A stretch of DNA of 64,000 nt, taken from Chloroflexota bacterium. GTDB lineage: Bacteria > Chloroflexota > UBA11872. The stretch spans positions 48,608-112,607 of the forward strand of contig JAJEGF010000081.1 of NCBI GenBank assembly GCA_022820025.1. Direction: 5' to 3'. The notes below the pieces were generated by a model. The model was not told the origin of the DNA, ran no database searches, and was given only the letters and a program-made list of their open reading frames with translations. This document shows, piece by piece, positions 25,604-49,399 of the stretch. Every line of letters begins with the position of its first letter. Position 1 is the stretch's first letter. A program made the translations under genes and the position numbers.

Positions 25604-25605
25604 AG

Positions 25606-29286: not shown

Positions 29287-29326
29287 GGACGCCGACGAAA
29301 GCCGCGCTTGCTAGCATTCGCCTTCA

Positions 29327-29414: not shown

Positions 29415-29579
29415 CTCCGTCCAGCGCGTCACTACCGACACGGTGCCACCCGGCGCCCCCAATACCACCGCGCCAGAAAGACCCACGACTCCCGCAGAGA
29501 ATCCCTTGACGTAGCCAATACTAATACCTAGCCTTCGCCGTGGCCAAAGTTAGCCATAGCTAATGCAGAGTGTTAGCCA

Positions 29580-30680: not shown

Positions 30681-30691
30681 CCCCGCGCCCA

Positions 30692-32326
30692 ATGGCCTCG
30701 GTCCCCGCAGTCGAACCCATCATCGGGTCATTCACTCCCCGCCGGTTCCCGCCCGTAGGGCTGACACTCCTCGCCCTGGCGGTCACCGCGCTCCTCGTGT
30801 TGCCGGTGATCTACCTGGGCATCAGGTCATTTGACTCGGGGATCGAGGCCTGGCAGTTGCTGGCGCGCCCCCGCATCGCGGCCGTCATTGGCCGAAGCCT
30901 TCTACTCGTCGTTTCAGTCACGGCGGTGGCCACCGCCCTGGCCCTACCCATCGCCTGGCTCCTCACGCGCACCGACCTTCCCGGCCGCCGCTGGTGGATG
31001 GTCGTCATGGTCCTGCCCCTCGTCATCCCCAGCTTCGTCTACGCCCTTGTCGCTGGCACCGCCCTCGGCCCCCGCGGCCTCGTCCAGCAAGGTCTCGAAG
31101 CCCTCATCGGCGTCCCCGAACTACCCTCCATCTACGGCTTTCCCGGCGCCCTGTTGGCCCTGGCGCTCCTCACCTATCCCTACGTCCTGCTGCCAACCAC
31201 GGCTGCATTTCGCCGCCTGGACCCTGCCCTGGAGGAAGTCAGTCGCTGCCTCGGCCGCGGTGCGCTGCGCACCTTCGCCACTGTCACCCTCCTGGCCCTC
31301 CGCCCAGCCATTGCGGCTGGCGCCCTGTTAGCCGCGCTCTACACCCTCTCCGACTTCGGCGCCGTCTCGCTCCTGCGCTACGAGACCTTCACCGCAGCCA
31401 TCTTCGTCCAGTACCAGTCCGCCTTCGACCGAGCCGCCGCCGCTGCCCTCTCGCTAGTCTTGGTGGCCGCCGCCATCGCCATCGTCGCTCTGGAGGCCCG
31501 CAGCCGCGGACGTTCCCGCTACCACGCCCTCGGCCCGGGCACGAGCCGCGAGTTCCGTCCCATCCCGCTGCGTCGCTGGCGCTGGCCCGCGCTGACCGGA
31601 CTAGGCCTGGTCGCGTTCTTCACCACCCTTGGCCCGGCCGCCGTGCTTGTCTACTGGCTGGTACGCGGCCTTGCCGCCGGCGAAAAGCTCCTCGAACTGG
31701 TCGAGCCCCTCGTCAACTCGGTCGGCATATCCGTCCTGGCCGCCGCGATCCTGCTGGTCGTGGCCGTCCCAATAGGCGTCCTTCTCGTGCGCTATCCCAG
31801 CCCGATCTCTCGCTTGGTCGAGCGCGGATCCTACGTTGGCTTCGCCCTGCCCGGTATCACCGTCGCCATCGCCTTTATCTTCTTCGGCATCAACGTGGCG
31901 CGGCCCATCTATCAGACCCTCGTACTCCTGCTGGCTGCCTACGTCGTCCTTTTCCTGCCCACCACCCTCGGCGCGGCCCGAGCCGGCCTTCTGCAAGTCG
32001 ATCCCCGCACCGAGGAAGCCGCCCGCACCCTCGGAAAAAATCCCCGCCAGGTTCTCTGGCGGGTCACCATCCCCGCCGTCCGCGGCAGCCTGGCCGCCGG
32101 CGCCGCCATGGCCTTCCTGCTCGTCATGAAAGAGCTCCCGGCGGCACTCCTGCTTGGCCCTATCGGCTTCCGCACCCTCGCCACCGTCACCTGGGCCGCC
32201 GCCCACGAAGCCTTCTTCGCCCAGGCCGCATCCTCGTCGCTCCTGTTGATCGTCGTCGCCTCGCTGCCCCTCGCCTTCATCCTGGTTCGGCGCGGCTCTG
32301 CTGGAATCCTGCGCGCCTCCGGCTAG
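30692..32326 (+). CDS. ABC transporter permease, fused two-domain (FbpB-like)
   Basis: ATG at 30692. About 545 aa with two repeated 6-TM permease halves. The ORF-track upstream extension overlaps the SBP gene. Confidence 0.6.
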   Translation: MASVPAVEPIIGSFTPRRFPPVGLTLLALAVTALLVLPVIYLGIRSFDSGIEAWQLLARPRIAAVIGRSLLLVVSVTAVATALALPIAWLLTRTDLPGRRWWMVVMVLPLVIPSFVYALVAGTALGPRGLVQQGLEALIGVPELPSIYGFPGALLALALLTYPYVLLPTTAAFRRLDPALEEVSRCLGRGALRTFATVTLLALRPAIAAGALLAALYTLSDFGAVSLLRYETFTAAIFVQYQSAFDRAAAAALSLVLVAAAIAIVALEARSRGRSRYHALGPGTSREFRPIPLRRWRWPALTGLGLVAFFTTLGPAAVLVYWLVRGLAAGEKLLELVEPLVNSVGISVLAAAILLVVAVPIGVLLVRYPSPISRLVERGSYVGFALPGITVAIAFIFFGINVARPIYQTLVLLLAAYVVLFLPTTLGAARAGLLQVDPRTEEAARTLGKNPRQVLWRVTIPAVRGSLAAGAAMAFLLVMKELPAALLLGPIGFRTLATVTWAAAHEAFFAQAASSSLLLIVVASLPLAFILVRRGSAGILRASG

Positions 32327-32372
32327 GCCACCCGCGTATCATGCGGGTCCCGGTCCCCTCGCAGGACGCGCC

Positions 32373-33734
32373 ATGTACAACCCGCACCTGCATCTTCTGA
32401 TCGACGACCACGAAGTCCTCTACCGCGCCGGCCTCACCCGCTTCGTCGAACAGCCCCAGCGTGTGTCCCTCGAACCGGTCCTCAAGCCGGAAATGCCCTG
32501 GGAACACGGCCACGTATCGCTCTGGGGCTCCGTCCTGCACGACGGCTCTGACTTCCAGATGTGGTACTTGGCCATACCCCCCGAACGCCGCCGGGGCTAC
32601 GACCGCATCTGCTACGCCACCTCGTCCGACGGCGTCAACTGGACGCGGGGCGACTTCGATCGCTACCCCCTCCCCGAAGCTCCCCGCAACAACCTCGTCT
32701 ACCGGGACGAGCAACTGCCCCGGATTCACCGCAGTCACCCGTTCACCGTCATCCGCGACCTCCTCGAACCCGACCCGCAACGCCGCTACAAGTTCGTCGG
32801 CTACATGAACGACGCCGACCACAACCGCGGCTATTCCGTCGGCTTCAGCCCCGACGGAATCGACTGGACCTGCGCCCCCCGCGTCCTCCTCCCCCGCGGC
32901 GACCGCACCGCCGTCGGCCAGGACTTCGTCAACGGCGGCTTCGTCATGACGTCGCGCGGCGACAACCGCGGCCGTGACCGGGAGGCCGGCCACATGACCC
33001 GGAGGGACATTGCCGTCTCTCGGTCACCTGACCTCCTGGACTGGACGCCCGGCGTCCGGGTCTTTGAGGGTGACGACGACGACCCGCCCGGAACCGAGTT
33101 CTACGGTATGCCCCTCTTCATGTGGGGCAATCAATGGATCGGATTCCTGGAGTACTACGACCCGCGCAACGAGGTCCTCAACGTCCAACTCACCACCAGC
33201 CGCGACGGCGACCGCTGGGAACGCGCCTGCTCGCGCCGAACCTACTTCGACGTTGGCTCCTCCGACTCCTGGGAAAGCACCTGGGTCGTCTTCCCGCCGT
33301 CCCCGCCAATCGTCGTCGGCGACGAGATGCTGCTCTGGTACACCGGCCGTCCCCTCGCCCACCGCCGGCTCCCGGAACTCACGTTCGCGTCCTCAATCGG
33401 CCTGGCCCGTGCCCCGCGCGACCGCTTCGCCGGCCTTCGCGCCGGTCCCGACGGCGGCGAACTCACCACCGACTGGGTTGAAGTCGGCGGCCCGCGCCTG
33501 CTGCTCAACATCGGAGCCGCCGCCGGCTCCCTCTCCGTCGCCGTCACCGGCGACGACGCCCAACCCATCGCGGGATTCGACCATTCGGACTGCGATCTCG
33601 GCATAGAGAACGGAGTCGACGTCGAAGCCACCTGGAATGGCCGCGACCTCGCCGCCCTTGTTGGACGCAGCGTCCGCCTCCACATTCGCATCACCTACGC
33701 CACCCTCTACGCCTACCGATTCGTCGACGCCTGA
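32373..33734 (+). CDS. Predicted beta-propeller glycoside-hydrolase-like protein (GH32/43/130-superfamily-like), paralog of 61633..63222
   Basis: Shares N-terminal blocks with 61633..63222 (LxxDDxxL/IE, xWY, SxDGxNW). Confidence 0.4.
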   Translation: MYNPHLHLLIDDHEVLYRAGLTRFVEQPQRVSLEPVLKPEMPWEHGHVSLWGSVLHDGSDFQMWYLAIPPERRRGYDRICYATSSDGVNWTRGDFDRYPLPEAPRNNLVYRDEQLPRIHRSHPFTVIRDLLEPDPQRRYKFVGYMNDADHNRGYSVGFSPDGIDWTCAPRVLLPRGDRTAVGQDFVNGGFVMTSRGDNRGRDREAGHMTRRDIAVSRSPDLLDWTPGVRVFEGDDDDPPGTEFYGMPLFMWGNQWIGFLEYYDPRNEVLNVQLTTSRDGDRWERACSRRTYFDVGSSDSWESTWVVFPPSPPIVVGDEMLLWYTGRPLAHRRLPELTFASSIGLARAPRDRFAGLRAGPDGGELTTDWVEVGGPRLLLNIGAAAGSLSVAVTGDDAQPIAGFDHSDCDLGIENGVDVEATWNGRDLAALVGRSVRLHIRITYATLYAYRFVDA

Positions 33735-33748
33735 AAGCAGAAGTAGCC

Positions 33749-35032
33749 ATGAGTGACCTCGCTCTCCTCGGCGGACAGCCCGTCCGTACCAAACCCTTCC
33801 CCCAATGGCCCATCGTCGAAGAGTCCGACGTCCAGGCCGTCGCCGATGTCGTTCGCAGCGGTGCCTGGGGGCGCCTCGGCGCCACCCAGGTCCACGAATT
33901 CGAGAAGGCCTTCGCCGCCTACCAGGGCGCCGCCTACGGCCTCAGCGTCAACAGCGGCGGCGTCGCCCTCGAACTCGCCCTGATGTGTCTGCACCTGCCG
34001 CGCGGCGCCGAAGTTCTCGTCCCCGCCTACACCTACATGGCCACCGCCACCTGCATCCTCCGCGCCGGCCTCACCCCCGTCTTCGTCGACATCCACCAGG
34101 ACACGTACAACATCGACCCAGCCCGGCTTGAGTCCGCCGTCACCGACCAGACCGGCGCCATCCTCCTCGTCCATTTCGGCGGCCTGGCCTGCGATATGGA
34201 CGCCGTCCTCGCAGTCGCTGAGAAACACGATCTCCGAGTGATTGAAGACTCCGCCCACGCCCACGGCGCCACCTGGAAAAATCGCGGCCTAGGCACCGTC
34301 GGCGACGTCGGTTGCTTCAGCTTCCAGGCCAGCAAGAACCTCAACGCCGGCGAAGGCGGCATGCTGCTCACCAACGACGCCCAGATCTACACCCGCGCCA
34401 TCGAGTACCACGACCTCTGGGCCGGCGGCATGCTCGAACGCGAGGGCCAGCTTGGCCAGGGCAGCATGCGTTCCGGCGCCACCTGGGACTACCCCGTCGC
34501 CGCCTCCAGCAACCGCATGCCCACCTACCAGGCCGTCCTGCTTCACCGCCAGCTCGAGCGCTTGGAGGAACAGACCGAGCTTCGCGCCGCCAACGGCGCC
34601 TACCTCGACGACCTGCTCGACGACCTCGAAGGCATCCAGCCCCGCCGCCAGGACGACTGGGTCACCCGCGATTCCCGGCACCTCTACATCTGCCGCTACG
34701 ACCCTGACGCCTTTGACGGCCTCCCCCGCGAAACCTTCATCAAGGCTCTTAATGCCGAAGGCATCCCCGCCGCCCCCGGCTACGGCCGAGCCCTCCATCG
34801 CACAGGCCTCTTCCAGGACCGCAACGGCGAACTCGCCCGTTTCTGGAATCGCAACGGCGGCGAGCCAGACATCGACTACCAGGCCGCCCCCTGCCCTGTT
34901 ACCGAGCGCCTCTGCGCCGGCGAAACCCTCTGGCTCAGCCAGAACGTCTTCCTCGACACCCCCGAAGGCATGACCCAGATCGCCACCGCCATCGAAAAAA
35001 TCCGCGCCTCCGCCTCAGACCTGATGTCGTAG
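33749..35032 (+). CDS. DegT/DnrJ/EryC1/StrS-family PLP-dependent sugar aminotransferase
   Basis: N-terminal LLGGQPVR..FPQWPIV and family-wide blocks. 427 aa. Confidence 0.75.
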   Translation: MSDLALLGGQPVRTKPFPQWPIVEESDVQAVADVVRSGAWGRLGATQVHEFEKAFAAYQGAAYGLSVNSGGVALELALMCLHLPRGAEVLVPAYTYMATATCILRAGLTPVFVDIHQDTYNIDPARLESAVTDQTGAILLVHFGGLACDMDAVLAVAEKHDLRVIEDSAHAHGATWKNRGLGTVGDVGCFSFQASKNLNAGEGGMLLTNDAQIYTRAIEYHDLWAGGMLEREGQLGQGSMRSGATWDYPVAASSNRMPTYQAVLLHRQLERLEEQTELRAANGAYLDDLLDDLEGIQPRRQDDWVTRDSRHLYICRYDPDAFDGLPRETFIKALNAEGIPAAPGYGRALHRTGLFQDRNGELARFWNRNGGEPDIDYQAAPCPVTERLCAGETLWLSQNVFLDTPEGMTQIATAIEKIRASASDLMS

Positions 35033-35096
35033 GGGCGCTTCGCGAAGCACCCCTCTCCCGCTCGAGGCGCCTCACCAACCGCTCGACCCTGCGTCC

Positions 35097-37286
35097 CTAC
35101 GCCCACTCCCCCTTAGGCTCCGGCCACGGCAATTCTTCCCGCGCCCCTCCGTTCGGCCCCCACCCAAAGTCCGCCCACCCGCGTGAGACATATAGCCGCG
35201 GTGCCGGAAAACCGTCATACAAATGCACGTGAAGCGGCGCGCCGTCTCGACCGTCACGACCCCGAAACAGCACGTAGCTTCCCCGGTAGTCCTCGAACCG
35301 ACCGATCTGCGCGCACTCCGCAAACCGCGCCGGGTCCTCGCCAAACACCCGCGCCGCATGCTCTAGCGCCACCCGTGCTTCCGGCCCCCGATCCGCTGGC
35401 GCCGGCGGCCAGATCACGTCACACCACAGCGGCAAATCGCCTGCGTCCGACTCGCCCTCGGCCGTCGTCACCCACGTCGGGGTCGACCACGCAAACCCGC
35501 CGTTCGCCTGCGTCACCCGCACGTAGTACCAGGTCTCCCTCGCCAGCGGCGCCGGATCCGCCCATTCCACGCTTGCATCCAGGCTGCCTGGCAGCTCCGT
35601 ATGCGCCAACCGGTTGCCTCGAATTATGTCAACACGATCGATCGGCGCGGTCCCATGCACCACAACGCGCAGTTCGACCGACCCATCGCTCGCCACCTCG
35701 GATCCCGCCGGCTCACCGTTCACCTGCACGTCCAGCAGAATCCGGTCTCCCGTCGTCGCGTACGTCCGACGCCCGAAGAACGCGTCGCGCACGCCCTGCC
35801 GCGTCAACTCCGGCGCGAACACCGCGGTCAGCGCGCTCCGCACCGAAAACGGACGCCGCGGCGTCTGGCCCTGGCCGAATCGCGGCCACACGTCATACCC
35901 CGGATGCCCTGCGTGCTCGTCCGCCATCCCCACGCTCGCGAACTTGTAGCCGCGCTGCAGTCCCTCGAACACGTACCACTCCGCGTGCTGGTGCATGGCC
36001 GAAATCTCGATTGTGGGCATCACGTCTTCCACACCGTCGCCGTACCGCTGCCAATCCGATCGCTGCGCCGCGTGCGACCCGATAAACACCTTCCCGTTGG
36101 TCGCTCGCACAGACTCGATCGTCCCGGCGATCGTGTCCTCAATCACCAGGTCCGCGTCGTCCTCCATGAACCACACCGTCAGGTCCCCGGCCGCCCGCCG
36201 CCGCTCCCACGGCGTGCGCTCGTACCCCAGGAACGTCACGAACCGCCCCGGCTCGTGCCACCTTCGCGCCGTCCGTTGCAGCTCCGCCCACATCTTCCGC
36301 ACGTCCAGCACCGGCGGACGGTTGAACGCCCCCGTCGCCCGCCCCGGCGTCGAGTAGATGTGGTCGGTCAGGCTGTAGAAATCCAGCCGCGCCTTGTTCC
36401 GCGCGTAGTCATGATTCCACTCCGCCGTCCCCGTCGCGTCGGCGTAGTCCGCATGACAGTGCATGTCGCCCCAATAGACCCGCTCGCTCGGCTCCACCTG
36501 GCAACGAATCGGGTTCGACGTTCCCGACACTGACCCGTCTGCGCCCGTCACCGTCAGCCGATGCACGCCTGGCCGCTCGAAGCGCAGCCCCTCGACTTCG
36601 ACAATCCCCCCGTCGTCTTCCGCAACCGAAGCGCTGGCAAGCTCAACCCCATCGACGCTCACCTGTAGTTCGCCCACGTACGCCGCCCCCGGATTCGAAC
36701 TCGCATCCTCGGCCCGCACGTGCAGCGCAAACGGCTCGTCCAGACCCACCACCGAGGGCGCGGTAACCCCCAGCTTCGCCGGCGGCCCCGGCACGATGGA
36801 GGCCGTCACGCAGTACGGCAGGTACGTCCAGGTCCCGTCCCCCGCGTGGTCCACCGCCACGTAGTAGTTGATCCGCTCGATGCTGTACGCCGGCGCCGCG
36901 GTCGGCTCGCCCGCCCCCACCCGCAGCACCACCTCGTCCCCATGCCGCAGCTCACCCCGAACCACCCGCACCTCGCAGAACCGGTTGTCCTTGTACGTCT
37001 GCGCCAGGTGAACCAGCTCCAACTCCGCGTCCCCATCCGTCTCCACCGTCACGTAATCCCAGCCGCTGGGATCCTCTGTCTGCGGCAAATACGCGCACGG
37101 CACATTGGTCTGGTCGTTCCAAAAACTGATCGCCCCGCCGTCCCGCACCGGCTGATCTCCGCACCGGTACGCAAACGTCCAGGTCCCTAAGCTCCCCGCC
37201 ACAATCTCGATCGCGTGCCCGGGTTCCTCATTGAATGCAACCGTCAAATCCTCCTGGTAGCAGTCATCCCTCGGCAGCTCACCCAC
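35097..37286 (-). CDS. Large hypothetical protein with PHP-like metal-binding motif (DUF3604-like)
   Basis: 729 aa. WGDMHCHADYADATG and DFYSLTDHIYS His-rich blocks. GTG start preceded by GGGAAAGGGAGGG. Confidence 0.4.
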   Translation of the reverse strand: MGELPRDDCYQEDLTVAFNEEPGHAIEIVAGSLGTWTFAYRCGDQPVRDGGAISFWNDQTNVPCAYLPQTEDPSGWDYVTVETDGDAELELVHLAQTYKDNRFCEVRVVRGELRHGDEVVLRVGAGEPTAAPAYSIERINYYVAVDHAGDGTWTYLPYCVTASIVPGPPAKLGVTAPSVVGLDEPFALHVRAEDASSNPGAAYVGELQVSVDGVELASASVAEDDGGIVEVEGLRFERPGVHRLTVTGADGSVSGTSNPIRCQVEPSERVYWGDMHCHADYADATGTAEWNHDYARNKARLDFYSLTDHIYSTPGRATGAFNRPPVLDVRKMWAELQRTARRWHEPGRFVTFLGYERTPWERRRAAGDLTVWFMEDDADLVIEDTIAGTIESVRATNGKVFIGSHAAQRSDWQRYGDGVEDVMPTIEISAMHQHAEWYVFEGLQRGYKFASVGMADEHAGHPGYDVWPRFGQGQTPRRPFSVRSALTAVFAPELTRQGVRDAFFGRRTYATTGDRILLDVQVNGEPAGSEVASDGSVELRVVVHGTAPIDRVDIIRGNRLAHTELPGSLDASVEWADPAPLARETWYYVRVTQANGGFAWSTPTWVTTAEGESDAGDLPLWCDVIWPPAPADRGPEARVALEHAARVFGEDPARFAECAQIGRFEDYRGSYVLFRGRDGRDGAPLHVHLYDGFPAPRLYVSRGWADFGWGPNGGAREELPWPEPKGEWA

Positions 37287-37489
37287 AACACCCTCCCTTT
37301 CCCTCGTCCGCTGGAACGAGGCTCACAACGCCGTCAGAAACCACGAACGCCTCCTACGCCGTTGCCTTTCGGAAGAGCGACTGTGTCTGGCAAACGGCGA
37401 AGCTACGGAACGACTCTCCATCTTTCTCCCGCGTCCAGGCAGAACGAGCGACTCCGCCAGGCGTCAAACTCGTCAGGGCCGCGCCGCTG

Positions 37490-37645
37490 TTTCCCTCTCC
37501 AAGGAGACCCTTCCGTAACCCGATGGACCGGTGTGTGGTGACAATCCCTTCGAGGAGCCGCCATTCTTTCCCCTCTCCAAGGGGAGAGACAGATTCGGGC
37601 GTCCTCGGCCGAAATCGGTGAGGGGTCTTCCGGTCGAGGCCCCTG
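37490..37645 (+). repeat. Conserved intergenic element, copy 1 (about 150 nt; 3' 80 nt about 90% identical to copy 2)
   Basis: GAGCCGCCATTCTTTCCCCTCTCCAAGGGGAGAGACAGATTCGGGCGTCCTCGGCCGAAATCGGTGAGGGGTCTTCCGG aligns with 41757-41837. Contains hairpin CTCTCC-NNGG-GGAGAG whose loop varies while the stem is preserved. Confidence 0.55.
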
Positions 37646-37740
37646 CGCCAACTCGGTCCCCTGTGACCCTTCCTTCTCCGGGGCCGCTTCGCTGCTCATG
37701 GCTCGAATGACCCTCTACCATCGCGCGAACACCAGTCCGT

Positions 37741-38091
37741 CTAACACGCCTCACTGTCGCCTCGATGCTCCCCCATCTCCTCCAGCATCGACCGAATCGT
37801 CGTCGCCGCCACGTCCAAACCTCGAAAGTAGACCTCCCGATACGTGTCGTCCGAAGCCCCGAAGTAAAAGTGAGTAGGCGCGTACTGAATGCCCGCGAAC
37901 GACCTGGCCTGTATCGATTCCGGACCAAAGACGTCGGCAATCACGGCGGTCGTGTCTTCTCGCCACCTCTGAAACTCCCGCGATCCAACCACCCGCTCCG
38001 GCGACCGCCACGCCAGTTCCTTGAGTCGTGGTACGGCTTCCAACGCCCTGGTCAACTGCTCGACTGCTTCCGCGTCAGCAGGCATTGTCAT
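37741..38091 (-). CDS. Hypothetical protein
   Basis: 116-aa ORF with normal amino-acid composition. No recognisable motif. Confidence 0.35.
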   Translation of the reverse strand: MTMPADAEAVEQLTRALEAVPRLKELAWRSPERVVGSREFQRWREDTTAVIADVFGPESIQARSFAGIQYAPTHFYFGASDDTYREVYFRGLDVAATTIRSMLEEMGEHRGDSEAC

Positions 38092-38155
38092 CCGACAACC
38101 TCACGAACCCGTCCCCGCCGCCACACACAGCCTGTCACCGGAGTCCCGGTAAGTC

Positions 38156-39268
38156 CTACAGCCAGGGATTCGTCGGATCCTCCAGCGGCAACGCAATCGG
38201 ACGTCCTTCCAGGTGCGACCGGTACGCCCCCACCAGCATCTCCACCCCGATCAGCGCGTCCTGGCCCGTACAGGTCGTCGGTCGGACCTCGCCGCCGTGA
38301 ATCAGCCTGACCAGTTCGCAGCCGTGCACGTGGTTGCTCCACGTCATGGTCTCCACGCCGTCGGGCGCCCAGCCATCGCTACCGTCGATCTCTTCCCATT
38401 CCAGGTCGCCCGCGGTGGGGAACACGTCCCCGCGCGGCAACACGTGAAACTGCCCGCGTGGCTGATTGCGCATGGTCACCAGCGCGTGCTGGTAGTAGCA
38501 GTCCGCCCCGAGCCGGTCCGAGCCGTACGATCCGTCGCCCACCGGCACTGATTCGAAGGTTCCAATCACGCCACCGGGAAAGAGATACGTGGCCGAAATA
38601 CGGTCGCCGGCAATCGGCCCGGCCCCATTCTCGGAGTGACCGACCGCATCGGCTCGCGTCGCGGGCCGCCCGTCCTGCAGCACCAGCCCCGACACCTGCA
38701 CGGGCGCCTCGCCCACCAGGTACAGCATCGCGTCGAACACGTGCGGCGCGTGGATCATCGACTCCTCAACGCCCACGCGGTGGTCGCCCTTGTCCATCGC
38801 ACGAATTCGCGTCAGCGGCCCCCACTCGCCGGCCTCGCCGCGCGCCCGGATCGTCTGCATTCCCGGGTGCTCGCGGCTGCGGTGCGCCAGGATCACGTGC
38901 GTCCCCGCCGCCTCGGCCGCGGCCATGACCTGCCGCGCTTGGTCCGCCCACGGCGCCAGCGGCTTCTCCACGTACAAGCCCTTGGCCCCGGCCTCGATCG
39001 CCGCCAGCGTTTCCTCGACCCGCCCGTCGTCGTACCAGTGCCGCGCGATCGCCACGATGTCCGGACGCTCTCGCTCCAGCATCTCGCGGTAGTCCGCGTA
39101 CGTCCGCTCCGCCCCGCAGGCCGCCGCCAGCTCGTCGCGCCCCGCGTCAACCGGGTCCGCCAGCGCCACCATCCGCACGTCCGGATTGGCCTGCCACGCC
39201 CGATGCAACCCATGCCCGGCCCCGCCCAGGTCGCTATTCGCAATCGTCACCGCACGCAACGCAGACAT
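38156..39268 (-). CDS. Gfo/Idh/MocA-family oxidoreductase
   Basis: N-terminal Rossmann fold and EKPLA motif. 370 aa. Confidence 0.7.
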   Translation of the reverse strand: MSALRAVTIANSDLGGAGHGLHRAWQANPDVRMVALADPVDAGRDELAAACGAERTYADYREMLERERPDIVAIARHWYDDGRVEETLAAIEAGAKGLYVEKPLAPWADQARQVMAAAEAAGTHVILAHRSREHPGMQTIRARGEAGEWGPLTRIRAMDKGDHRVGVEESMIHAPHVFDAMLYLVGEAPVQVSGLVLQDGRPATRADAVGHSENGAGPIAGDRISATYLFPGGVIGTFESVPVGDGSYGSDRLGADCYYQHALVTMRNQPRGQFHVLPRGDVFPTAGDLEWEEIDGSDGWAPDGVETMTWSNHVHGCELVRLIHGGEVRPTTCTGQDALIGVEMLVGAYRSHLEGRPIALPLEDPTNPWL

Positions 39269-39326
39269 CGGCAGCTACTTCCGGGTCCCGCAAGCCGACG
39301 GGAGTCTACTGGCTAGCGTGGACCGC

Positions 39327-40118
39327 CTACTGGATCGACCGGTACCGCCACACCGCCAGCGGCACGAACACCGCCATGATCCCCGCCATCCAGGCCAGCG
39401 CCCACACCAGCGGCTCCCAGAAGTCCGTGCCCAGCGCCAGCCCGCGCATCGCGTTGACCGTGTGCGTCACCGGGCTGTTCTCGGCGACGACCTTCAGCCA
39501 GTCGGGCATCGTCTCCACCGGTACGAACACCGAGCTCACGAACACCAGCGGAAACAACCACACGAACGACGCCACCTGCGCCGTCTCCGCCCGCCGCACG
39601 CTGGTGCCGATGGCCGCCGAGATCCAGCAAAACGTCTGACCGAACAGCACCGCCACGAAGGGCATCGCAATCGCCCCGGCCACCGTCCCGTGGTACCGGA
39701 ACCCGATCAGGAATCCCACGCCCAGCATCAACCCCACCACGAATACGTTCCGCGTGGTGTCCGCCAGGATCCGCCCCGCCACCACCGCCGACCGCGCCAT
39801 CGGCAGCGTGCGATAGCGATCGATCATCCCGCTCGTAACGTCCACCGCCAGCCCCACGCCCGTCTGGGTCGACCCGAACAACACCGACTGCGCCAGGATC
39901 CCAGGCAGCAGGAAGTCGATGTAGTCCACCGGCCCCGTCTGGATCGCCCCGCCGAACACATACGCGAACAGCAGCACGAACATCACCGGCTGGATCGTCG
40001 AAAACACCAGCAGGTCCGGCTGCCGCCGGTAGGCCAGCATGTTGCGCTTCCACAGTTGCAGGATGTCGCCCGGCGCATAACGCGCCTCCACCCGCAGCGC
40101 GTCCATTGAAACCACCAT
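39327..40118 (-). CDS. ABC-2 type transporter permease
   Basis: 263 aa, six TM helices. ATGA overlap with the upstream ATPase gene. Confidence 0.6.
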   Translation of the reverse strand: MVVSMDALRVEARYAPGDILQLWKRNMLAYRRQPDLLVFSTIQPVMFVLLFAYVFGGAIQTGPVDYIDFLLPGILAQSVLFGSTQTGVGLAVDVTSGMIDRYRTLPMARSAVVAGRILADTTRNVFVVGLMLGVGFLIGFRYHGTVAGAIAMPFVAVLFGQTFCWISAAIGTSVRRAETAQVASFVWLFPLVFVSSVFVPVETMPDWLKVVAENSPVTHTVNAMRGLALGTDFWEPLVWALAWMAGIMAVFVPLAVWRYRSIQ

Positions 40119-41113
40119 CAGACCGCTCCCGTGGGCGCCTCGGCCGGCTCGCTCTCGGCCCGATGCCCGGTCAATGACAGGAACACTTCATCCAGCGTCG
40201 GCTGCCGCAGCCCGATGTCAGCAATCGCTACCTCGGCCTCGTCCAGCCGCCGCACCACCCCGGCCAGCCGCGCCGGCCCGTTGGAGACCGCCACCGACAC
40301 CGTGCCCGTGGCATCGTCAACCGTCGGCGGCCCCTCGCCCTCGGCCTCCAGCACCTCCCGTACCTGGTCCAGCGCCGCCAGGTCGCTCACCCGCACGGTC
40401 AGGTGCTCGCCGCCCGACCGTGCCTTCAGGTCCGCCGCCGTGCCCTGGGCGATGATCCGCCCGTGGTCGATCACCACGATCTCGTCCGCCAGTTGATCGG
40501 CTTCTTCCAGGTACTGCGTCGTCAGCAGCACCGTCGTCCCGGTCGCCACCAGCTCGCGAATCACCGTCCACAGCTCGAGCCGCGCCTGCGGATCCAGCCC
40601 CGTCGTCGGCTCGTCCAGGAACAGCACCTCGGGATCTGCCACCAGGCTCGCCGCCAGGTCCAGCCGCCGCCGCATCCCGCCGGAGTAGGTCCTGGCCGCA
40701 CGGTCGGCCGCGTCCGTCAGATCGAATCGCGCCAGCAGTTCGCCAGTGCGTGTCGCGGCCCTCGCCCGTCCCATGTGGTACAGGTTCGCCACCATCTCCA
40801 GGTTCTCGCGGCCCGTCAGCGTGTCGTCGATCGCCGCCGACTGCCCCGCCAGCCCGATCAGCGGACGCACCCGCGTCCGCTCGCGCCGCACGTCGAACCC
40901 CGCCACCGTCGCCGAACCCTCGTCCGGATCCAGCAGCGTCGTCAGCACCCGCACCAGCGTGGTCTTGCCGGCCCCGTTGGGCCCCAGCAGGCCCAGCACC
41001 GTCCCCGTGTCGATCTCCAGGCTCACCCCGGCCAGCGCCTGCACGTCCCCAAAAGACTTGTGAACGTCGCGCACAACCACAATTGGGGCGCTGCCGTTAG
41101 AACGGTCGGCCAT
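40118..41113 (-). CDS. ABC transporter ATP-binding protein (DrrA-like exporter ATPase)
   Basis: Walker A GPNGAGKTTL, signature YSGGMRRR, Walker B LLFLDEPTTGLD. Internal ATG at 41113 preferred over the ORF-track start. Confidence 0.75.
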   Translation of the reverse strand: MADRSNGSAPIVVVRDVHKSFGDVQALAGVSLEIDTGTVLGLLGPNGAGKTTLVRVLTTLLDPDEGSATVAGFDVRRERTRVRPLIGLAGQSAAIDDTLTGRENLEMVANLYHMGRARAATRTGELLARFDLTDAADRAARTYSGGMRRRLDLAASLVADPEVLFLDEPTTGLDPQARLELWTVIRELVATGTTVLLTTQYLEEADQLADEIVVIDHGRIIAQGTAADLKARSGGEHLTVRVSDLAALDQVREVLEAEGEGPPTVDDATGTVSVAVSNGPARLAGVVRRLDEAEVAIADIGLRQPTLDEVFLSLTGHRAESEPAEAPTGAV

Positions 41114-41243
41114 TAGCTCCGCATCTCCAGTCCTGCCTGGCACGCCGGTCCCAAGACGCAACCCGGCAATTGTCGCACGCACCGAAGCGCCGGAAAGGTT
41201 GCTTTCTCACGGTCCGCGAAGGACGAGGATTCCTCCGACTGGG

Positions 41244-41681
41244 CTAACGCCGCCTCTTCCGCACCCGCACCACCACCTGCCCGTCCCGCACCTCCACCGG
41301 AAACGTCCGCGCCCGTACCCGTTCGTCGTACAGCGCCTGCCCTGTCGTTATGTCAAATTCCCAATTGTGGAACGGGCACCGCAGGATCTCGCCCTCCCGC
41401 TCGAACTCCCAGTACCCCACCTTGTCGGACACCGGATGCGGCCGAATCCGCCCCCGGCACAGCGGTCCGCCCCGATGCGGACAGTGATTCAGCATCGCGT
41501 ACAACTCGCCGCCCACATTGAAAACCGTCACCCCATACCCCAGCGCCCCCCTCACCTCCCGCCGCTCCCCCGCCGGCAACTCGGCCAACGGACAAACCAC
41601 AACCTCGTCAGACCCAGCCACCGTCACGTGCTCCGATGCCGCTGGGGAACCCAGCAAGACTCCTCGCTCCCCCCAAGCCAC
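41244..41681 (-). CDS. Rieske [2Fe-2S] domain protein
   Basis: CPHRGGPL and CPFHNWEF cluster-binding boxes. GTG start with a GGAGG SD. Confidence 0.7.
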   Translation of the reverse strand: MAWGERGVLLGSPAASEHVTVAGSDEVVVCPLAELPAGERREVRGALGYGVTVFNVGGELYAMLNHCPHRGGPLCRGRIRPHPVSDKVGYWEFEREGEILRCPFHNWEFDITTGQALYDERVRARTFPVEVRDGQVVVRVRKRRR

Positions 41682-41699
41682 GGCCGCTCTTCCTCCGTC

Positions 41700-41850
41700 T
41701 CCCCGTGGAAACCTTTGCGTAACCCGAGAGGCGAATGCGCGGTTTCAGTCCATTCGCGGAGCCGCCGTTCCTTCCCCTCTCCTGGGGGAGAGGCAGATTC
41801 GGCCGTCTTCGGCCGAAATCGGTGAGGGGTCTTCCGGGCAACCACCTGTC
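41700..41850 (+). repeat. Conserved intergenic element, copy 2
   Basis: See copy 1. Located between the Rieske gene start and the amidohydrolase gene end. Confidence 0.55.
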
Positions 41851-41942
41851 GGGTTTTGCAAAAGCCTCTTCGGGGAGTGAATTGGGATGAGGATCTTCCC
41901 CCGCCACTCCTCGCAGGACACGAAGGCATGCAGGGAGAACAG

Positions 41943-43052
41943 CTACAACCGGAACGCCGCCCGCGCCGTCTCGCCAAAAATGTTGTTGCGCATCTCGGCT
42001 GGAAAGTCCGGCGCCACCGACGTCGGCGAGTCCCAGTCCCAGTGCGGGAAATCGCTCGCGTACACCAGCGTCTCGTCCGCTCGAGCCTGCTCCAGGAACC
42101 AGTGCAGGTCCTCGCGCGATCCCGGCTGCTCCATCGGCTGCGTGCCCACCCGGATGTGATCGCGGAAATACTCACTCGGCAGCCGCTTCACCCACGGCGT
42201 GTAGTCCCGCACCGCCTTCCAGTCGGCGTCGAAGTGGTTCAGCAGTCCTGGAATCCACCACGTATCCACTTCCACGAACACCCACGTCAGCGTCGGAAAC
42301 TTCTCGAACACCCCTTCGCAGATCAGGCTGGCCGTATGCGCCTGCGCGATCTGCGGACGCGCCATCCGCATCTCCAGGTAATAGGTCGGGAAACCGGCCG
42401 CCGTCGGCGGATTTGTCTGACCCCGCCCCTCGCCCCCGAAGTGCGTCACGATCGTCAGCCCGTACCGCTCCGCCGCCTCATAAATCGAGTGATAGATCCG
42501 GTTCCCGTACGGATGACGTCCGCCCGCCGGCAGCATCACCCCCACCACCGCCGGGTGATCCCCCAGCCGCTCGATCTCCTCCACCGCCAGCACCGGATCG
42601 TTCGGCCCCACCGCCAGCGTCGCGCGGAACCGCGGGTCCTTCGCCACCCAGTGATCCATCGTCCAGTCGTTATGCGCCCGGCAGATCGCCGCCGCGTAAT
42701 CCAGGTTCGTCATCCCCACCGTCGGGTACACCATCTGCCCCGTCAGGATCGCCACGTCGAACCCGTACGGATCCAGGTGCTCCTTGACCGTGAACTCCGC
42801 GAAGTCCGTGTCCTCGTCCACGTCGTGGTCGGTCCGGTAGCCGTGCGAGTTCGGCATGTTCGTCCAGCCGCCGTTAGGAAACATGGACCCGAAGTCCTTG
42901 ATTTCCTGCACGTACTGCCGTGGCAGATAGGGAAAGATCTCGTCGATCTTGTGCCACAGGTGGTGACAATCGCAGTCCACCAGGTACGGCGCGACTTTGC
43001 GATACGTGGGCGCCCGCTCGGCGGGGCGGGGCAGGGAGTCAACGGCCGCCAT
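41943..43052 (-). CDS. Amidohydrolase-2 (ACMSD-like metal-dependent hydrolase) family protein
   Basis: N-terminal VDCDCHH metal-binding motif. Internal ATG at 43052 chosen. Confidence 0.6.
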   Translation of the reverse strand: MAAVDSLPRPAERAPTYRKVAPYLVDCDCHHLWHKIDEIFPYLPRQYVQEIKDFGSMFPNGGWTNMPNSHGYRTDHDVDEDTDFAEFTVKEHLDPYGFDVAILTGQMVYPTVGMTNLDYAAAICRAHNDWTMDHWVAKDPRFRATLAVGPNDPVLAVEEIERLGDHPAVVGVMLPAGGRHPYGNRIYHSIYEAAERYGLTIVTHFGGEGRGQTNPPTAAGFPTYYLEMRMARPQIAQAHTASLICEGVFEKFPTLTWVFVEVDTWWIPGLLNHFDADWKAVRDYTPWVKRLPSEYFRDHIRVGTQPMEQPGSREDLHWFLEQARADETLVYASDFPHWDWDSPTSVAPDFPAEMRNNIFGETARAAFRL

Positions 43053-43073
43053 GACTCGACTCCAGCGCAATCC

Positions 43074-44504
43074 TCAGCGCAACGCCGATGGTATCCCACC
43101 CACCCGCGGCCTGGGCCAGATGGCGGCAATGAGCAGAACGGGGACCAGCGTCACCGTCGTCAGCGCAACGGCCGCCGTGGCGACCGCAACCGGCCACGGC
43201 CAGTCGGATGTCACCAGCCGCCAGAGCGACTGCGCCTTGCTCCGCGTCGGCTCCGCCGCGCCGTGAGCGACAAACTCGAGATCCTGATCCGGCCATGTCA
43301 GCTCGCCGTTCACCCAGAGCCGCCCGTCCTTGAACCGATCCCCCTTCACCATCCCAACCCGCAGAGATGCCGTTGGCTCAACGTCAGCCACGACTTGCAG
43401 AAACACTTGACGCCCCTCGTCCGCGGTCAAGAGGGGAACGTCGATATCGATCCACGCCGGAAGATCGCCGGCGGGGACTTCGACCCGTCCCTCCCGGAGC
43501 ACGCGGCCCTGCCCCGAGTCAAAGCCCTCCAGCACCCGCCAGATCGCCTCGCCCGACCGCCGCTCGGGGTCACGATTCGCCAGCGGCACGCTCAGCCCTG
43601 AAACCGCACCCGCCGGCATGGGAAACCCCTGCGCCAACGACTGCTCAGTCTCAAGGCTCACCCAGTACGTCACGTGTCCCGCTGTCGCTCGTGAATCCAC
43701 CAGCGGCACGCGATACGCAAGCCCCGCGAAGAGAACGCCAACGGTCAAGACCGCGAGAGTCGACCCGATAGTCACCCGCTTGATTTGACGCTCGCTGAAC
43801 GTGTCTCCAAATGGATTTGACCGGGCCAACGCCGCAGCGGCGCTCAGGGCTATCAGGAGGGTCCCCCCAAACTCAAGGGTCTCCTCCATCACCACCATGA
43901 GATCACTTGCCCGGCCTCGGAACACCGCCAGGGTCACCGCTTCGCAGAGCAAAGCGAACAACCACACGGCCAGGCCCAGCGCGAACGGCGCCCGAACGCT
44001 TCGAGTCCGCAGCCCGCGTACCCAGAAGATCCCCATCAGAATCGCAAAGGCCGCGATCAGCGGGCTCACCAGCAGAACCCAGACATACGGGCCGGCGCTC
44101 GCTATCAGATCGACGCCCAGCAGCCGCGATCCGATAGCCGGCACGATCGTCGAATGAACCTCGGTCGTCTCTTCCCAGCCCAGTACGAGTGCTGTGCCCG
44201 ACAGCACAGCCCAGCCACCAACGGCAATCCGACCTTCACCTCGTCCACGACTCACAACAGCCGCCAGCATTGCGAGCACGCCCAAGACCAGCAGGGCTGC
44301 GGTTGAAGCCCGGTTCGCCAGCCTGCCCTCATAGTCGATGTCCGGGTTCAGATCTCGCGGAATCGACTCCGGCGCCAGCCACCCGGGAAACGCCAGGCTC
44401 ACCAGGTTCGGAACCACCACCCCACCCCACCAGAACAGCACCGCGCCCAGCAGCAGCAGCCGCCCGACCCAACCCGCCCGCGGCCTCGTCACCAGCGTCC
44501 GCAT
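43074..44504 (-). CDS. Polytopic integral membrane protein, hypothetical
   Basis: About 475 aa with many hydrophobic helices. No kinase or transporter motifs seen. Immediately downstream of the response regulator. Confidence 0.4.
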   Translation of the reverse strand: MRTLVTRPRAGWVGRLLLLGAVLFWWGGVVVPNLVSLAFPGWLAPESIPRDLNPDIDYEGRLANRASTAALLVLGVLAMLAAVVSRGRGEGRIAVGGWAVLSGTALVLGWEETTEVHSTIVPAIGSRLLGVDLIASAGPYVWVLLVSPLIAAFAILMGIFWVRGLRTRSVRAPFALGLAVWLFALLCEAVTLAVFRGRASDLMVVMEETLEFGGTLLIALSAAAALARSNPFGDTFSERQIKRVTIGSTLAVLTVGVLFAGLAYRVPLVDSRATAGHVTYWVSLETEQSLAQGFPMPAGAVSGLSVPLANRDPERRSGEAIWRVLEGFDSGQGRVLREGRVEVPAGDLPAWIDIDVPLLTADEGRQVFLQVVADVEPTASLRVGMVKGDRFKDGRLWVNGELTWPDQDLEFVAHGAAEPTRSKAQSLWRLVTSDWPWPVAVATAAVALTTVTLVPVLLIAAIWPRPRVGGIPSALR

Positions 44505-44522
44505 CCGCTCCACGTCGCGGCG

Positions 44523-45218
44523 TCAGCCATGCTTCCGCAGCACGTACCCCACCCCAGGCCTTGTCACCAGGTGCCGTGGATCCGCCGGATGTCGCTCGAT
44601 CTTCTCCCGCACCCGCCGCACATACACCCGCGCCAGGTGCCGGTCCCCCGCATACTCCGGCCCCCACACCTCGTCGACCAGTTGCGCCGGCCTGAACACC
44701 CGGTCGCGGTTCCTCGCCAGGAACCGCAACAGTCGAAACTCCGAGGCGCTCATCGCCACCGGCCGCCCCGCCACCCGCACCTCCGCCGCCGCAAAGTCCA
44801 CGGTCAGCCCGGCCGACGCAAACGGAGGCCACGCCCCCGCCGGCGCCCGCCACAGCACCGCCCGCAGTCGCGCCAGCAACTGATCCAGGTCAAACGGCTT
44901 CGCCAGGTAATCGTCCACCCCCGCCTCCAGCGCCCGCGCAATCCCCTCGTCATCCCCGGCCAGCGTCATGGCAACCACCGGCGCCTCACATACCTCGCGC
45001 AGCCGCGTCAACACGCACAGCGCCTCCACGTCCGGCAAGCCCAGATCAAGCAACACCACGTCGGGCGGGTCGGTTTGGGCCTCCGTCAGACCTCGCGAGC
45101 CAGTCCCGGCAAACACCGCCCGGAAATCGCCCACCGCCAGGTCCGCGCGCAGCTGCCGCACGTACCGCAGGTCATCCTCAACCACCAGCACCAGCGGGCG
45201 CTCGCGCCTGCCCCTCAT
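44523..45218 (-). CDS. Two-component response regulator, OmpR/PhoB family
   Basis: Receiver-domain DD...D (VVLLDLGLPD) and C-terminal winged-helix block (YVRRVREKIE). Confidence 0.75.
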   Translation of the reverse strand: MRGRRERPLVLVVEDDLRYVRQLRADLAVGDFRAVFAGTGSRGLTEAQTDPPDVVLLDLGLPDVEALCVLTRLREVCEAPVVAMTLAGDDEGIARALEAGVDDYLAKPFDLDQLLARLRAVLWRAPAGAWPPFASAGLTVDFAAAEVRVAGRPVAMSASEFRLLRFLARNRDRVFRPAQLVDEVWGPEYAGDRHLARVYVRRVREKIERHPADPRHLVTRPGVGYVLRKHG

Positions 45219-45342
45219 GCAGCGTCCCCTCGTCCGCGCGTAGCTCGTCTGCCCTCAACCGCGCATGGTGCGACACCCCGCGTGAGCCCGCACGCCCAAC
45301 CAACCACCCGCTCGCCAAACTACGAACCCGAAACATAAGATT

Positions 45343-46005
45343 ATGTCTATTCGCCGCCGCAAGGGTCCCCAGCCCATGGCCAGCAACCAGTCGGACTACC
45401 CCGTCCAGTTCTCCGTCGACTACCCCGACCGACCCCTCAACCGCCTCACCACCCTCGTCCGGCTCATCATGGTCATCCCCATCCTCATCGTCGCCGCCCT
45501 CATTCCGGGCTTCGTCAACAGCGGCCAGGCCGGCACGGACCAGGTGTCAATCTCCATCCCGCTCGTCTGGCTGCCCCTCGTCCTGATTCTGGTCTTCCGC
45601 CACAAGTACCCGCGCTGGTGGTTCGACTGGAACCTGGAACTCAGCCGCTTCGTCTACCGCATCGAGGTCTACGTCCTGGCCCTGCGCGACGAATACCCCT
45701 CCACCGACGACCACCAGGCCGTCCACCTCGACATCGACTACCCCGACGCCCAAACCGACCTCAACCGCTGGCTCCCCCTCGTCAAGTGGCTCCTCGCCAT
45801 CCCCCACTACATCGTCCTGGCCATCCTTGGCATCCTCGCCTTCGTCGCCGTGGTCCTGGGCTGGATCATGGTCGTCATCACCGCCCAGTACCCGCGCGCC
45901 CTCTTCGACTTCATCGTCGGCGTCATCCGCTACGGCGCCCGCGTCCAGGCCTACGCCTTCATGCTCACCACCGACCGCTACCCACCCTTCCGCCTCGACC
46001 CCTAA
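45343..46005 (+). CDS. DUF4389-family membrane protein
   Basis: VDYPDRPLNRLTTLVRLIMVIPILIV and a second repeat (DIDYPDAQTDLNRWLPLVKWLLAIPHYIV) typical of DUF4389. Confidence 0.5.
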   Translation: MSIRRRKGPQPMASNQSDYPVQFSVDYPDRPLNRLTTLVRLIMVIPILIVAALIPGFVNSGQAGTDQVSISIPLVWLPLVLILVFRHKYPRWWFDWNLELSRFVYRIEVYVLALRDEYPSTDDHQAVHLDIDYPDAQTDLNRWLPLVKWLLAIPHYIVLAILGILAFVAVVLGWIMVVITAQYPRALFDFIVGVIRYGARVQAYAFMLTTDRYPPFRLDP

Positions 46006-46312
46006 CCCCCCTCCAAGCGCCCCAGGCCAGCGCGTCTAGTCAACCGCAGTCCGGGGCGCACTAGCGGATGGTCAAGCCGCTCGTCCCAACGTGCATCGCC
46101 CCACCTGCCCGCACTACGAACCTACGCACCTACGCAACCCCAAGAAACCAAAACATCACCGCTACGGGCCATCGCGACGCCTCGTCATCCACATGGATAC
46201 AATCACGGCGATACTCGCCGCCGTGCACAAGTGACGGCGCGGTGTTCAAATCAGTCCGATGTGACGAGCTTCACAGAAGTCAGCTACGCGGCTTAGCCAA
46301 GAGGCGACATCA

Positions 46313-46519
46313 ATGAGCATTCGCCCAAGCCGCTTGCGCTTGGCCCCGGCGGCTGTCGTCTCCCTGCTGCTTCTTGCAATTGCGGCCGGCTGTCAACGGG
46401 TGACGGTACAGGAATCTCAGGAAGACCGCGTCGAGTGCCGCTCGCCGTTTCACGGGGATCCCATGCCCACCAAAGACAATCCCGTGCCGACCGCGATCAT
46501 GCGCTGCAATGACCCCTGA
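46313..46519 (+). CDS. Small putative lipoprotein (68 aa)
   Basis: Signal peptide plus lipobox LLAIAAGC. AGAGG SD. Immediately upstream of the PD40-LRR gene. Confidence 0.35.
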   Translation: MSIRPSRLRLAPAAVVSLLLLAIAAGCQRVTVQESQEDRVECRSPFHGDPMPTKDNPVPTAIMRCNDP

Positions 46520-46880
46520 GACCCGTTCGAGCCAAAGCTACATAGAGTCGCAGGCAGGAGGAGTCGGGATAGTGCCTCCGTCGGCATCCACCGGTACCAC
46601 GAGCTACAACAGGCGACTGCGGACGCCTCCGACCAGCAACGCCGGCGACCTTCCCGCACCAGTTGGACCCGAGGACGATCGATGCGCTAAACCAGCCGGA
46701 CTGACAAGGGTTATCACGGCGCCAGTCATGCGCTTGAGCCCGTCGCCGACCGCCGAAGAGTCTTTGACGAGCCAGAATGGGGCCTGTGAAGCTCTGCCGG
46801 CCTAACGCACATGATGTTTCGACAGGGCCCGAGTCATCTGGTTGAGGCAATACAACTACCCGACTTTGCGCAACCGACGC

Positions 46881-49205: not shown

Positions 49206-49399
49206 GGACAACTCCTCAAAGTGACGTTCGTGAAGTCCTGCGGACAGCCGAGCGGTGAATGAAACGTCGCTCACCCACCCGCCCACGGATCAATCACCTC
49301 AACCCCACACCCCCAAAAACCCCTCCACATCCCGCGTCGCCACACCCATCCCCTTGGAGCGCGCGATTGCCGCAGTCTGGCAGTCCGCTTGACTGATCA

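Follow-up and report, generated by a model that had tools for sequence, protein, structure and literature searches.

Two structured intergenic repeats of a Chloroflexota contig, probably copies of an IS5-type family of miniature inverted-repeat transposable elements

What are the two look-alike intergenic sequences that lie at either end of a run of five genes in a Chloroflexota contig? The window analysed here is a stretch of 64,000 nucleotides (positions 48,608 to 112,607 of the forward strand of contig JAJEGF010000081.1, GenBank assembly GCA_022820025.1, lineage UBA11872), and the two sequences, here called copies A and B, lie close to its positions 37,490 and 41,700. An initial annotation, made from the letters alone, took them for conserved, structured elements of about 150 nt bracketing a 4-kb cassette, and offered a cis-regulatory RNA, a small RNA (sRNA) and an element like a repetitive extragenic palindrome (REP) or a miniature inverted-repeat transposable element (MITE) as candidate identities. 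We argue that both probably belong to an IS5-type MITE family whose core is conserved and structured.

The pair itself is real and was found where it had been placed. Comparison of the window against itself by BLASTN gave 90.6% identity over an 85-nt stretch (37549-37633 against 41753-41837), close to the 90% first given for the 3′ part, and a longer alignment (37483-37633 against 41683-41837) gave 80% over 155 nt; in a pairwise alignment of the two copies the 3′ portion is near-identical and the 5′ portion weaker. The cores lie at 37553-37636 (copy A) and 41757-41840 (copy B), and a degenerate 64-nt core pattern matched these two sites only in the window and nothing in 100 shuffles. No further copies were found in the window by BLASTN or by a filter-free covariance-model search, and two candidates at 54550-54641 (24.9 bits) and 31486-31563 (14.8 bits) were rejected as coding sequence with no visible resemblance. 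Both copies carry the hairpin that had been described (called H1 below), with its stem CTCTCC/GGAGAG kept and its loop AAGG in one and TGGG in the other. The GGGCG/GGCCG variation in a second stem is also real, but within the pair it is not compensatory, the stem pairing perfectly in copy B and having a G.G mismatch in copy A, and compensatory changes were seen only across the family. The elements are longer than the 150 nt first stated (copy B with its flanking repeat debris spans ~41683-41907), and the only open reading frames (ORFs) across A and B are short, overlapping and high in GC.

Both copies are likely to belong to a large MITE family of marine and sponge-associated Chloroflexota. 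An exact-pattern scan for CTCTCCNNGGGGAGAGNCAGA, run on one representative genome per species, returned at least 113 stretches, nearly all from Chloroflexota metagenome-assembled genomes (MAGs; about 19), many of them from sponges and several being complete chromosomes. Family-wide counts, here and below, rest on loci (given by their L numbers) among the matches listed: many stretches had 2-4 matches inside 1 kb, a core profile search gave 192 full-length cores in ~110 loci, and a covariance model gave 114 matches in the first 56 loci. Outside the Chloroflexota the matches were a Balneolaceae MAG (L062) with the genuine whalefall-1 motif discussed below, a MAG labelled 'bacterium' with a full core (L093), and hairpin-only matches. 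The population from which the window comes has at least 3 more copies in ~20 kb of extra sequence (L002:11633-11716, L004:3821-3904 and the degenerate L004:4050-4127), and a copy number for its whole genome is an extrapolation from 4-5 copies per ~83 kb. No description of this repeat family, nor of unusual skew in these Chloroflexota, was found in the literature.

The ends of the elements and their coming and going between genomes carry the case for a MITE. A consensus terminal inverted repeat (TIR) of ~19 nt, GGAGACCTTTGCGTAACCC, stands upstream of the core and its inverse downstream; among 160 cores with room to test, the left TIR was recognised at 56 and the right at 52. From TIR to TIR the elements are non-coding and fall into length classes of 144, 162, 185 and 207 nt and longer (range 144-356 nt), copy B and copy A (the latter as found in scaffold_2, see below) being of the 162-nt class. 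Just outside the TIRs, perfect direct repeats of 3 or 4 nt were present at 10 of 34 distinct elements, against ~1.2 expected by permutation; this automated count comprises 6 of three and 4 of four nt, and the target site duplications (TSDs) read by eye are CGT (three times), TTT, TCT, ACA (twice), CTAG, ACGG, TTGA and CCTC. Filled and empty sites were also found. In L088 a 233-nt TIR-bounded insertion occupies the loop of a CCCTCTCCC-NNN-GGGAGAGGG hairpin which is intact in the orthologous L081, and at the site of copy A there are short units only in L030 and one or two full elements in L004, L082 and L083, with the loop TGGC duplicated on either side of the element in L083. The size of arrays likewise differs between orthologous sites (3 vs 1 units for L081 and L088, 5 vs 1 for L077 and L042). 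Another supposed empty-site pair, L010 and L046, was set aside, the region being too diverged to define ends. At copy A, the left flank appears from its sequence to be a half-hairpin into which the TIR-bounded element inserted.

A candidate for the enzyme that moves these elements was found between the same termini. Where these stand 1.17-1.19 kb apart they enclose an ORF of 322-327 amino acids, with Pfam domains DUF772 and DDE_Tnp_1 and a match to the NCBIfam model 'IS5 family transposase' (282 bits, cut-off 140); this insertion sequence (IS) occurs in L036:362-1555, L084:1001-2179, L096:3514-4707 and L119-L125, and public assemblies contain numerous close relatives of the transposase (78-98% identity). 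The left end of the IS, GGAGACCTTTGCAAAACCC, agrees with the MITE TIR at 17 of 19 positions, while the interiors are unrelated. Eight IS copies were examined. Five (L036, L084, L096, L123, L125) lie within the H1 hairpin of a core, each with 4 bp perfectly duplicated at the same position, CTCT/CCNN/GGGGAGAG (CCGA, CCTG, CCAA, CCTG and CCAA). With L124, where a short unit carries the IS in its loop and 3 bp (GTC) are duplicated, perfect duplications in H1-type hairpins were seen in 6/8; in L119 the hairpin is again that of a short unit but the duplication is imperfect, and in L122 the IS is nested among other ends. Relative to the core, the IS was found in both orientations (3:2). The REP/MITE-like candidate identity is thus the one supported, by multiple copies, TIRs, TSDs, filled and empty sites and the IS5 partner, while the cis-regulatory RNA and the sRNA are not; indeed many copies with TIRs, the outcome that the initial annotation had named as speaking against its RNA readings, is close to what was found.

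These observations suggest a model in which an IS5-family transposase or a close relative moves the MITEs in trans. Its preferred target would be the hairpin carried by the MITE itself, and the nesting of elements would then give rise to co-oriented tandem arrays within intergenic spacers. The termini (GGAGAC... and ...GTCTCC) resemble the arms of H1, and so each insertion may rebuild the hairpin at both of its junctions, which would explain why nested and tandem arrays arise. Copies A and B lie passively in the spacers of minus-strand operons and would be transcribed only as antisense passengers. As a MITE family it would add one more to a familiar class of elements; its self-targeted hairpin, its kinship to whalefall-1 and its strand polarity go beyond the ordinary, and it would offer a clear case of an IS and a MITE with a preferred target carried by the MITE. 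In annotation, spacers of this kind call for the label 'repeat' or 'MITE debris' and not for that of a regulatory RNA.

H1 is not the only part of the core to receive insertions. An element that encodes an RNA-guided transposase of the IS110 family (NCBIfam NF033542, 208 bits, cut-off 140) was found in the core tail, at GGTGAG/GGGTCTTCC; the insertions in L039 (~2900-4100) and L115 (~5740-6900) are at the same point of the tail, without obvious duplication. Similar junction sequence is present in L080, L029 and L099, and L032, L102 and L099 have more distant homologues (62-67% identity) close to cores. This suggests that the core tail may be a programmed target of the IS110-family element.

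Several points weigh against the IS5-type MITE as a full account. Recognisable TIRs on both sides were found at only 37/160 cores, and in the window itself the TIRs are eroded (13/19 in copy B) with no TSD preserved (in B, CCGT vs TCGG). The two TIRs of copy A agree at 16/19 positions in scaffold_2, its right TIR being replaced in the window at a scaffold junction. In another species (L019), whose flanks are 91-95% identical, the site of copy B is filled by the same element enlarged by a 56-nt module, so the insertion of B is old, and both window copies are old and probably immobile. The IS was not found in ~83 kb of sequence from the window's own organism, and we infer mobilisation in trans from ~19 nt of common ends alone. 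The fold of the core and the strand on which it lies count against this model too.

The core is predicted to form a compact three-way junction, composed of a closing helix, P1, and two hairpins, H1 and H2. In P1, CUCUUCACC pairs with GGUGAGGG and there are two nearly fixed U.G pairs, valid on the plus strand only. For the fold statistics 100 distinct copies were aligned. H1 (a 7-bp hairpin, CCTCTCC-NNGG-GGAGAGG) was invariant in the sampled copies, which is an artefact of the search pattern by which it was fixed. H2 consists of 10 pairs, and at 6 of these compensatory changes were seen; it also has a bulged A and, in 41/90 copies, a G.G mismatch, and it occurs in versions of 17, 23 and 47 nt, the longest with an extra inserted hairpin. 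Overall 94.7% of cells were paired, compared to 89.8% in shuffles and 42-64% with slid partners, and the plus strand was more stable than the minus strand in 165/192 copies (median -37.0 vs -32.1 kcal/mol). Since transposition alone needs no folded strand, the covariation in H2 and the conserved U.G pairs of P1 are not what the MITE model calls for; they point to selection on a folded single strand, RNA and DNA being alike in this respect. The claim of selection on structure therefore stands for H2 across the family, with no power to tell RNA from single-stranded DNA. A three-way-junction ribozyme of the hammerhead kind was considered and rejected, since, as read from the sequence, it lacks the catalytic core motifs and its junction linkers measure 0, 2 and 1 nt.

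A check against Rfam had been proposed, and at gathering thresholds it returned two tRNAs only for the window. In E-value mode one family matched the copies, RF01762 (whalefall-1), on the plus strand, with 29.5 bits (E 7.5e-6) for copy B and 20.8 bits (E 0.0064) for copy A, both under the family's gathering score of 37 bits; at that threshold whalefall-1 was found in 0/15 non-Balneolaceae loci tested (13 of them Chloroflexota). The Chloroflexota element thus resembles whalefall-1 but fails the family's own score criterion and is not a member of it. Genuine whalefall-1 is present in the Balneolaceae MAG, at L062:4398-4453 on the minus strand (65.1 bits) and L062:4645-4701 on the plus strand (65.6 bits). 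The two are divergent, with 190 nt between them, and the 1.7-kb intergenic region in which they lie also holds a third, partial repeat (~4550-4590). Weinberg et al. (2010, PMC2864571) found the motif in no other source than metagenome DNA of whale falls and described it as a likely non-coding RNA, and so an environmental-only motif gains a taxonomic home together with a structured relative in the Chloroflexota.

The strand on which the core lies is nearly invariant. In 108/109 loci it is on the C-rich strand (mean local skew in element orientation -0.145, elements masked): 59 loci have the core on the minus strand with positive skew and 49 on the plus strand with negative skew, against 1 on the minus strand with negative skew and 0 on the plus strand with positive skew. 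For the tail motif of the short units the count is 47 on the C-rich strand against 0 on the G-rich one, and at multi-copy loci all copies share one strand in 40/40, regardless of gene content. Genes are on the G-rich strand in 54% of cases, with a coding-strand skew of only +0.025, and in the window the plus-strand skew runs from -0.05 to -0.225 over all 64 kb. Cut-and-paste transposition by a DDE enzyme into a palindromic target should not give such polarity, and the IS5-type model leaves this 99% bias unexplained. The sole exception, L029 (OZ242271.1, 840-848 kb), is an inverted duplicate of L099 (984-992 kb) on the same chromosome; the same four-copy array with its flanks is there twice, inverted, which fits a recent inversion, a duplication or a misassembly. 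On complete MAG chromosomes the sign of the skew agrees among the sampled loci along most of the sequence (CBDHGI010000006 5/5, OZ244802.1 5/5, OZ242271.1 7/7 negative), which two equal replichores would not give, in a sampling conditioned on presence of the element.

Orientation bias of insertion sequences with respect to replication is documented, being strongest in single-strand transposons and weaker in some DDE families, and for IS200/IS605/IS607 it has been attributed to use of the lagging-strand template (PMC3971601). It is conceivable, though we think it unlikely, that the core (closing helix, H1, H2 and the GGTGAGGGG tail) is a replication-polar, structure-selected chromosomal element with whalefall-1 as its Balneolaceae DNA-repeat counterpart rather than an sRNA. 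If this were true, placement on the C-rich strand would reflect either propagation that is single-stranded and coupled to the fork, or selection by the host on orientation, which might keep the more foldable strand off the lagging-strand template or serve a role in chromosome organisation. Such polarity amid a strong skew that is independent of gene strand could bear on how replication constrains repeats.

A neighbouring explanation, which we regard as improbable, is that an HUH/Y1 transposase (a REP-associated tyrosine transposase, RAYT, or 'TIRYT') or another fork-coupled process acts on the core, a REP-like element, in the form of single-stranded DNA, with the IS5-type ends as secondary insertions. 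Near-absolute polarity is of the kind reported for IS200/IS605/IS607, the hairpins of the core are imperfect with conserved irregularities (the bulged A and the G.G mismatch), and the core is targeted by two IS families as REPs are targeted by insertion sequences (PMC3971601). The TIRs beside RAYT-like genes ('TIRYT') share the motif GGGGWSAS (Di Nocera et al. 2013, PMC3733652), which the 3′ arm of H1, GGGGAGAG, also fits, but this is a resemblance over an 8-mer only. REPs are defined as palindromes tagged by GTAG (or CGTC) at one foot (PMC3733652), whereas here GTAG is absent from the foot of either hairpin and CGTC occurs only inside the top of H2. A regular-expression search for HUH...Y motifs on six-frame translations of all loci found no such ORF in ~0.8 Mb of loci or in the window, a weak negative as such genes are usually single-copy. 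Furthermore, whole TIR-bounded units including the core appear and vanish with TSDs, and Y1 transposition makes none.

That the core is instead a functional RNA, either a whalefall-1-like sRNA or a cis-acting element of untranslated regions affecting message stability or translation, with the MITE spread incidental or the core an exaptation, we consider quite improbable. The plus-strand matches of both copies to an sRNA candidate, the compensatory pairs of H2, the overall share of paired cells, the P1 U.G pairs and the better folding of the plus strand would all be accommodated by it, as would the position of the left end of copy B, which abuts the called start of the Rieske gene. However, both copies score under the gathering threshold where genuine whalefall-1 reaches 65 bits, the invariance of H1 comes from the search pattern, and compensatory changes in palindromes are typical of DNA repeats such as REPs too. 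Nor do the genes around the elements favour a transcript of fixed role. With genes called by codon usage (the caller reproduced known calls on L002 and L004), the element clusters were intergenic, most of the 13 'inside' cases involving ORFs that are weak or likely to be spurious. The orientation of the clusters with respect to the upstream and downstream gene was mixed (opposite/opposite 38, same/opposite 23, same/same 16, opposite/same 13), with a mild excess (61/90) of elements whose 3′ side faces the 3′ end of a gene, and different sites have unrelated neighbouring genes. Copies A and B are both antisense to the minus-strand operon around them, and no sigma-70-like promoter or intrinsic terminator was found near A or B. 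A fixed cis-regulatory role and an independent sRNA gene are unsupported, given the mixed orientation and the lack of promoter or terminator.

Least credible of all is that the pair is a local segmental feature, with two recombination sites around a mobile 4-kb cassette (integron-like or a composite transposon), since this is contradicted by the family-wide distribution of copies, which occur singly, in tandem or from 100 nt to many kb apart beside unrelated genes in about 19 genomes, and are co-oriented in 40/40 loci whatever the gene content. A and B are indeed co-oriented and flank five genes, the identity of the window's scaffold changes exactly at copy A, and the TIR (GCGTAAC...GTTACGC) agrees at 6/7 positions, as read from the sequence, with the R″/R′ boxes of integron attC sites (RYYYAAC/GTTRRRY). 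An attC site was nevertheless rejected, there being this R-box resemblance only, no integrase nearby, multi-gene intervals, and arrays of elements without ORFs; the five genes look like an ordinary operon and not like promoterless single-ORF cassettes, and in two other assemblies they have a different downstream neighbourhood. The copies thus flank genes in the window as had been said, but the exact arrangement was not reproduced in other assemblies, and the 4-kb 'cassette' did not hold up, the spacing between copies being variable and copy A lying on a scaffold junction.

This junction was followed by locating exact window proteins in public assemblies. Window 25097-37633 is 100% identical to ENA scaffold_2 (L004; the identity is to L004/L005), and window 37546-49268 is 99.89% identical to ENA scaffold_17, from which it differs outside the element at 46335 and 46361 only; the last difference inside the element is at 37604, which places the switch in the 29 nt common to both copies that follow it (see Table). 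Two Logan contigs end at 37605 and 37629. The cassette genes are on ENA scaffold_17 or scaffold_399 (L002, L001), followed by SnoaL and MMPL genes, and the DUF3604-like gene is on scaffold_2, preceded by another GFO/IDH/MocA gene; the two loci thus stand on separate long scaffolds in other assemblies. At the same position scaffold_17 has a different copy with its own 5′ part, and so the spacer is filled in either arrangement. The junction may be either a homologous recombination between copies or an assembly chimera; the change of scaffold inside copy A illustrates how, in these abundant and mostly uncultured Chloroflexota, the repeat causes assemblies to break or to be joined wrongly.

The minus-strand genes around the copies lie as had been described, the ORF coordinates agreeing: a DUF3604-like gene (35097-37286), an ORF at 37741-38091, a Rieske gene (41244-41681) and an Amidohydro_2 gene (41943-43070). 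The five genes between A and B encode a 116-residue ORF product, a GFO/IDH/MocA protein, an ABC-2 permease, an ABC-2 ATPase and the Rieske protein. The called GTG start of the Rieske gene and its GGAGG Shine-Dalgarno sequence (41679-41700) sit in repeat-derived sequence (GGCCGCTCTTCCTCC, other strand), and this start codon is not conserved in the orthologue in L019, so the true start may be further downstream. Elsewhere in the window, two adjoining tRNA genes with long variable arms are present at 29197-29284 and 29327-29411 on the plus strand (Rfam tRNA, 56 and 57 bits).

Table. Parts of copies A and B and of their flanks, in window coordinates
Feature	Position	Strand	Evidence
Copy A left flank, half of an apparent older unit (GCCGCTGTTT + CCCTCTCC + loop AA)	37483..37502	+	Sequence; four-genome alignment of the orthologous site
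Copy A left TIR, GGAGACCCTTCCGTAACCC	37503..37521	+	Fuzzy match to family TIR; partner GGATTATGCAAGGGTCTCC 162 nt away in scaffold_2 (L004)
Copy A 5′ module, 'type I' (...GGTGTGTGGTGACAATCCCTTCGAGGAGCCGCC)	37522..37563	+	Conserved in 20 copies of other genomes
Copy A core: P1 37564-37571 with 37618-37625, H1 37572-37589, H2 37592-37616	37564..37625	+	Model R1 89.6 bits; pair counts; whalefall-1 20.8 bits
Scaffold switch, 29 nt identical between two copies	37605..37633	.	Left side identical to scaffold_2, right side matching scaffold_17
Copy B left half of older unit (GGCCGCTCTTCCTCC + GTCTCC + CCGT)	41683..41706	+	Sequence; alignment with orthologue L019; abuts called Rieske GTG start (41681)
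Copy B left TIR, GGAAACCTTTGCGTAACCC	41707..41725	+	13/19 against the inverse of 41851-41869 (read from sequence)
Copy B 5′ module, type I	41726..41767	+	Pairwise and family alignment
Copy B core: P1 41768-41775 with 41822-41829, H1 41776-41793, H2 41796-41820	41768..41829	+	Model R1 97 bits; whalefall-1 29.5 bits, E 7.5e-6
Copy B subterminal stretch TCTTCCGGGCAACCACCTGTC and right TIR GGGTTTTGCAAAAGCCTCT (41851-41869)	41830..41869	+	Sequence; family alignment
Degenerate right half of older short unit (TCGG GGAGTG AATTGGGATGAGGATCTTCC CCCGCCAC)	41870..41907	+	Tail-motif match at 41884; completes the hairpin interrupted by B

Among known systems, whalefall-1 has the same order of parts on the same strand, that is a CUCUCC-NNGG-GGAGAG hairpin, an (A/G)CAGA linker, a variable second hairpin and a G-rich GGUGAGG tail. 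In the Chloroflexota element the second hairpin is longer and GC-rich with a loop of UCUU or UCCU and not CUUG, the conserved whalefall-1 tail (GGUGAGGAC) is shared in its GGUGAGG and differs in the remainder, and a closing helix, TIRs and TSDs are added. REPs and bacterial interspersed mosaic elements (BIMEs) are likewise abundant intergenic palindromes in mosaic arrays, with compensatory changes in their stems and a role as landing sites for insertion sequences: IS1397 and ISKpn1 insert in REP loops and IS110-family elements in REPs, much as IS5 inserts in H1 and IS110 in the tail here. REPs, however, measure 20-40 nt, bear a GTAG or CGTC tag and are associated with Y1 (RAYT) transposases, while the present element is larger, with TIRs and TSDs and no tag. 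The repeats flanking 'TIRYT' genes are also moderately abundant inverted-repeat families, often in dimers or clusters, with the GGGGWSAS motif that GGGGAGAG fits, but no tyrosine transposase was seen near any copy here and the partner is a DDE enzyme.

Bacterial MITEs are known from other groups, such as the Correia/NEMIS elements of Neisseria and RUP of S. pneumoniae. The present family resembles MITEs derived from or mobilised by IS5-family insertion sequences in being small (144-270 nt), non-coding, multi-copy and intergenic, with ~19-nt TIRs, 3-4-bp TSDs and a matching full-length IS. It differs from them in that this IS shares termini only and not the interior, in that the preferred target is the hairpin of the conserved foldable core itself, giving nested and tandem arrays, and in the near-invariant orientation of its copies on the chromosome with respect to GC skew.

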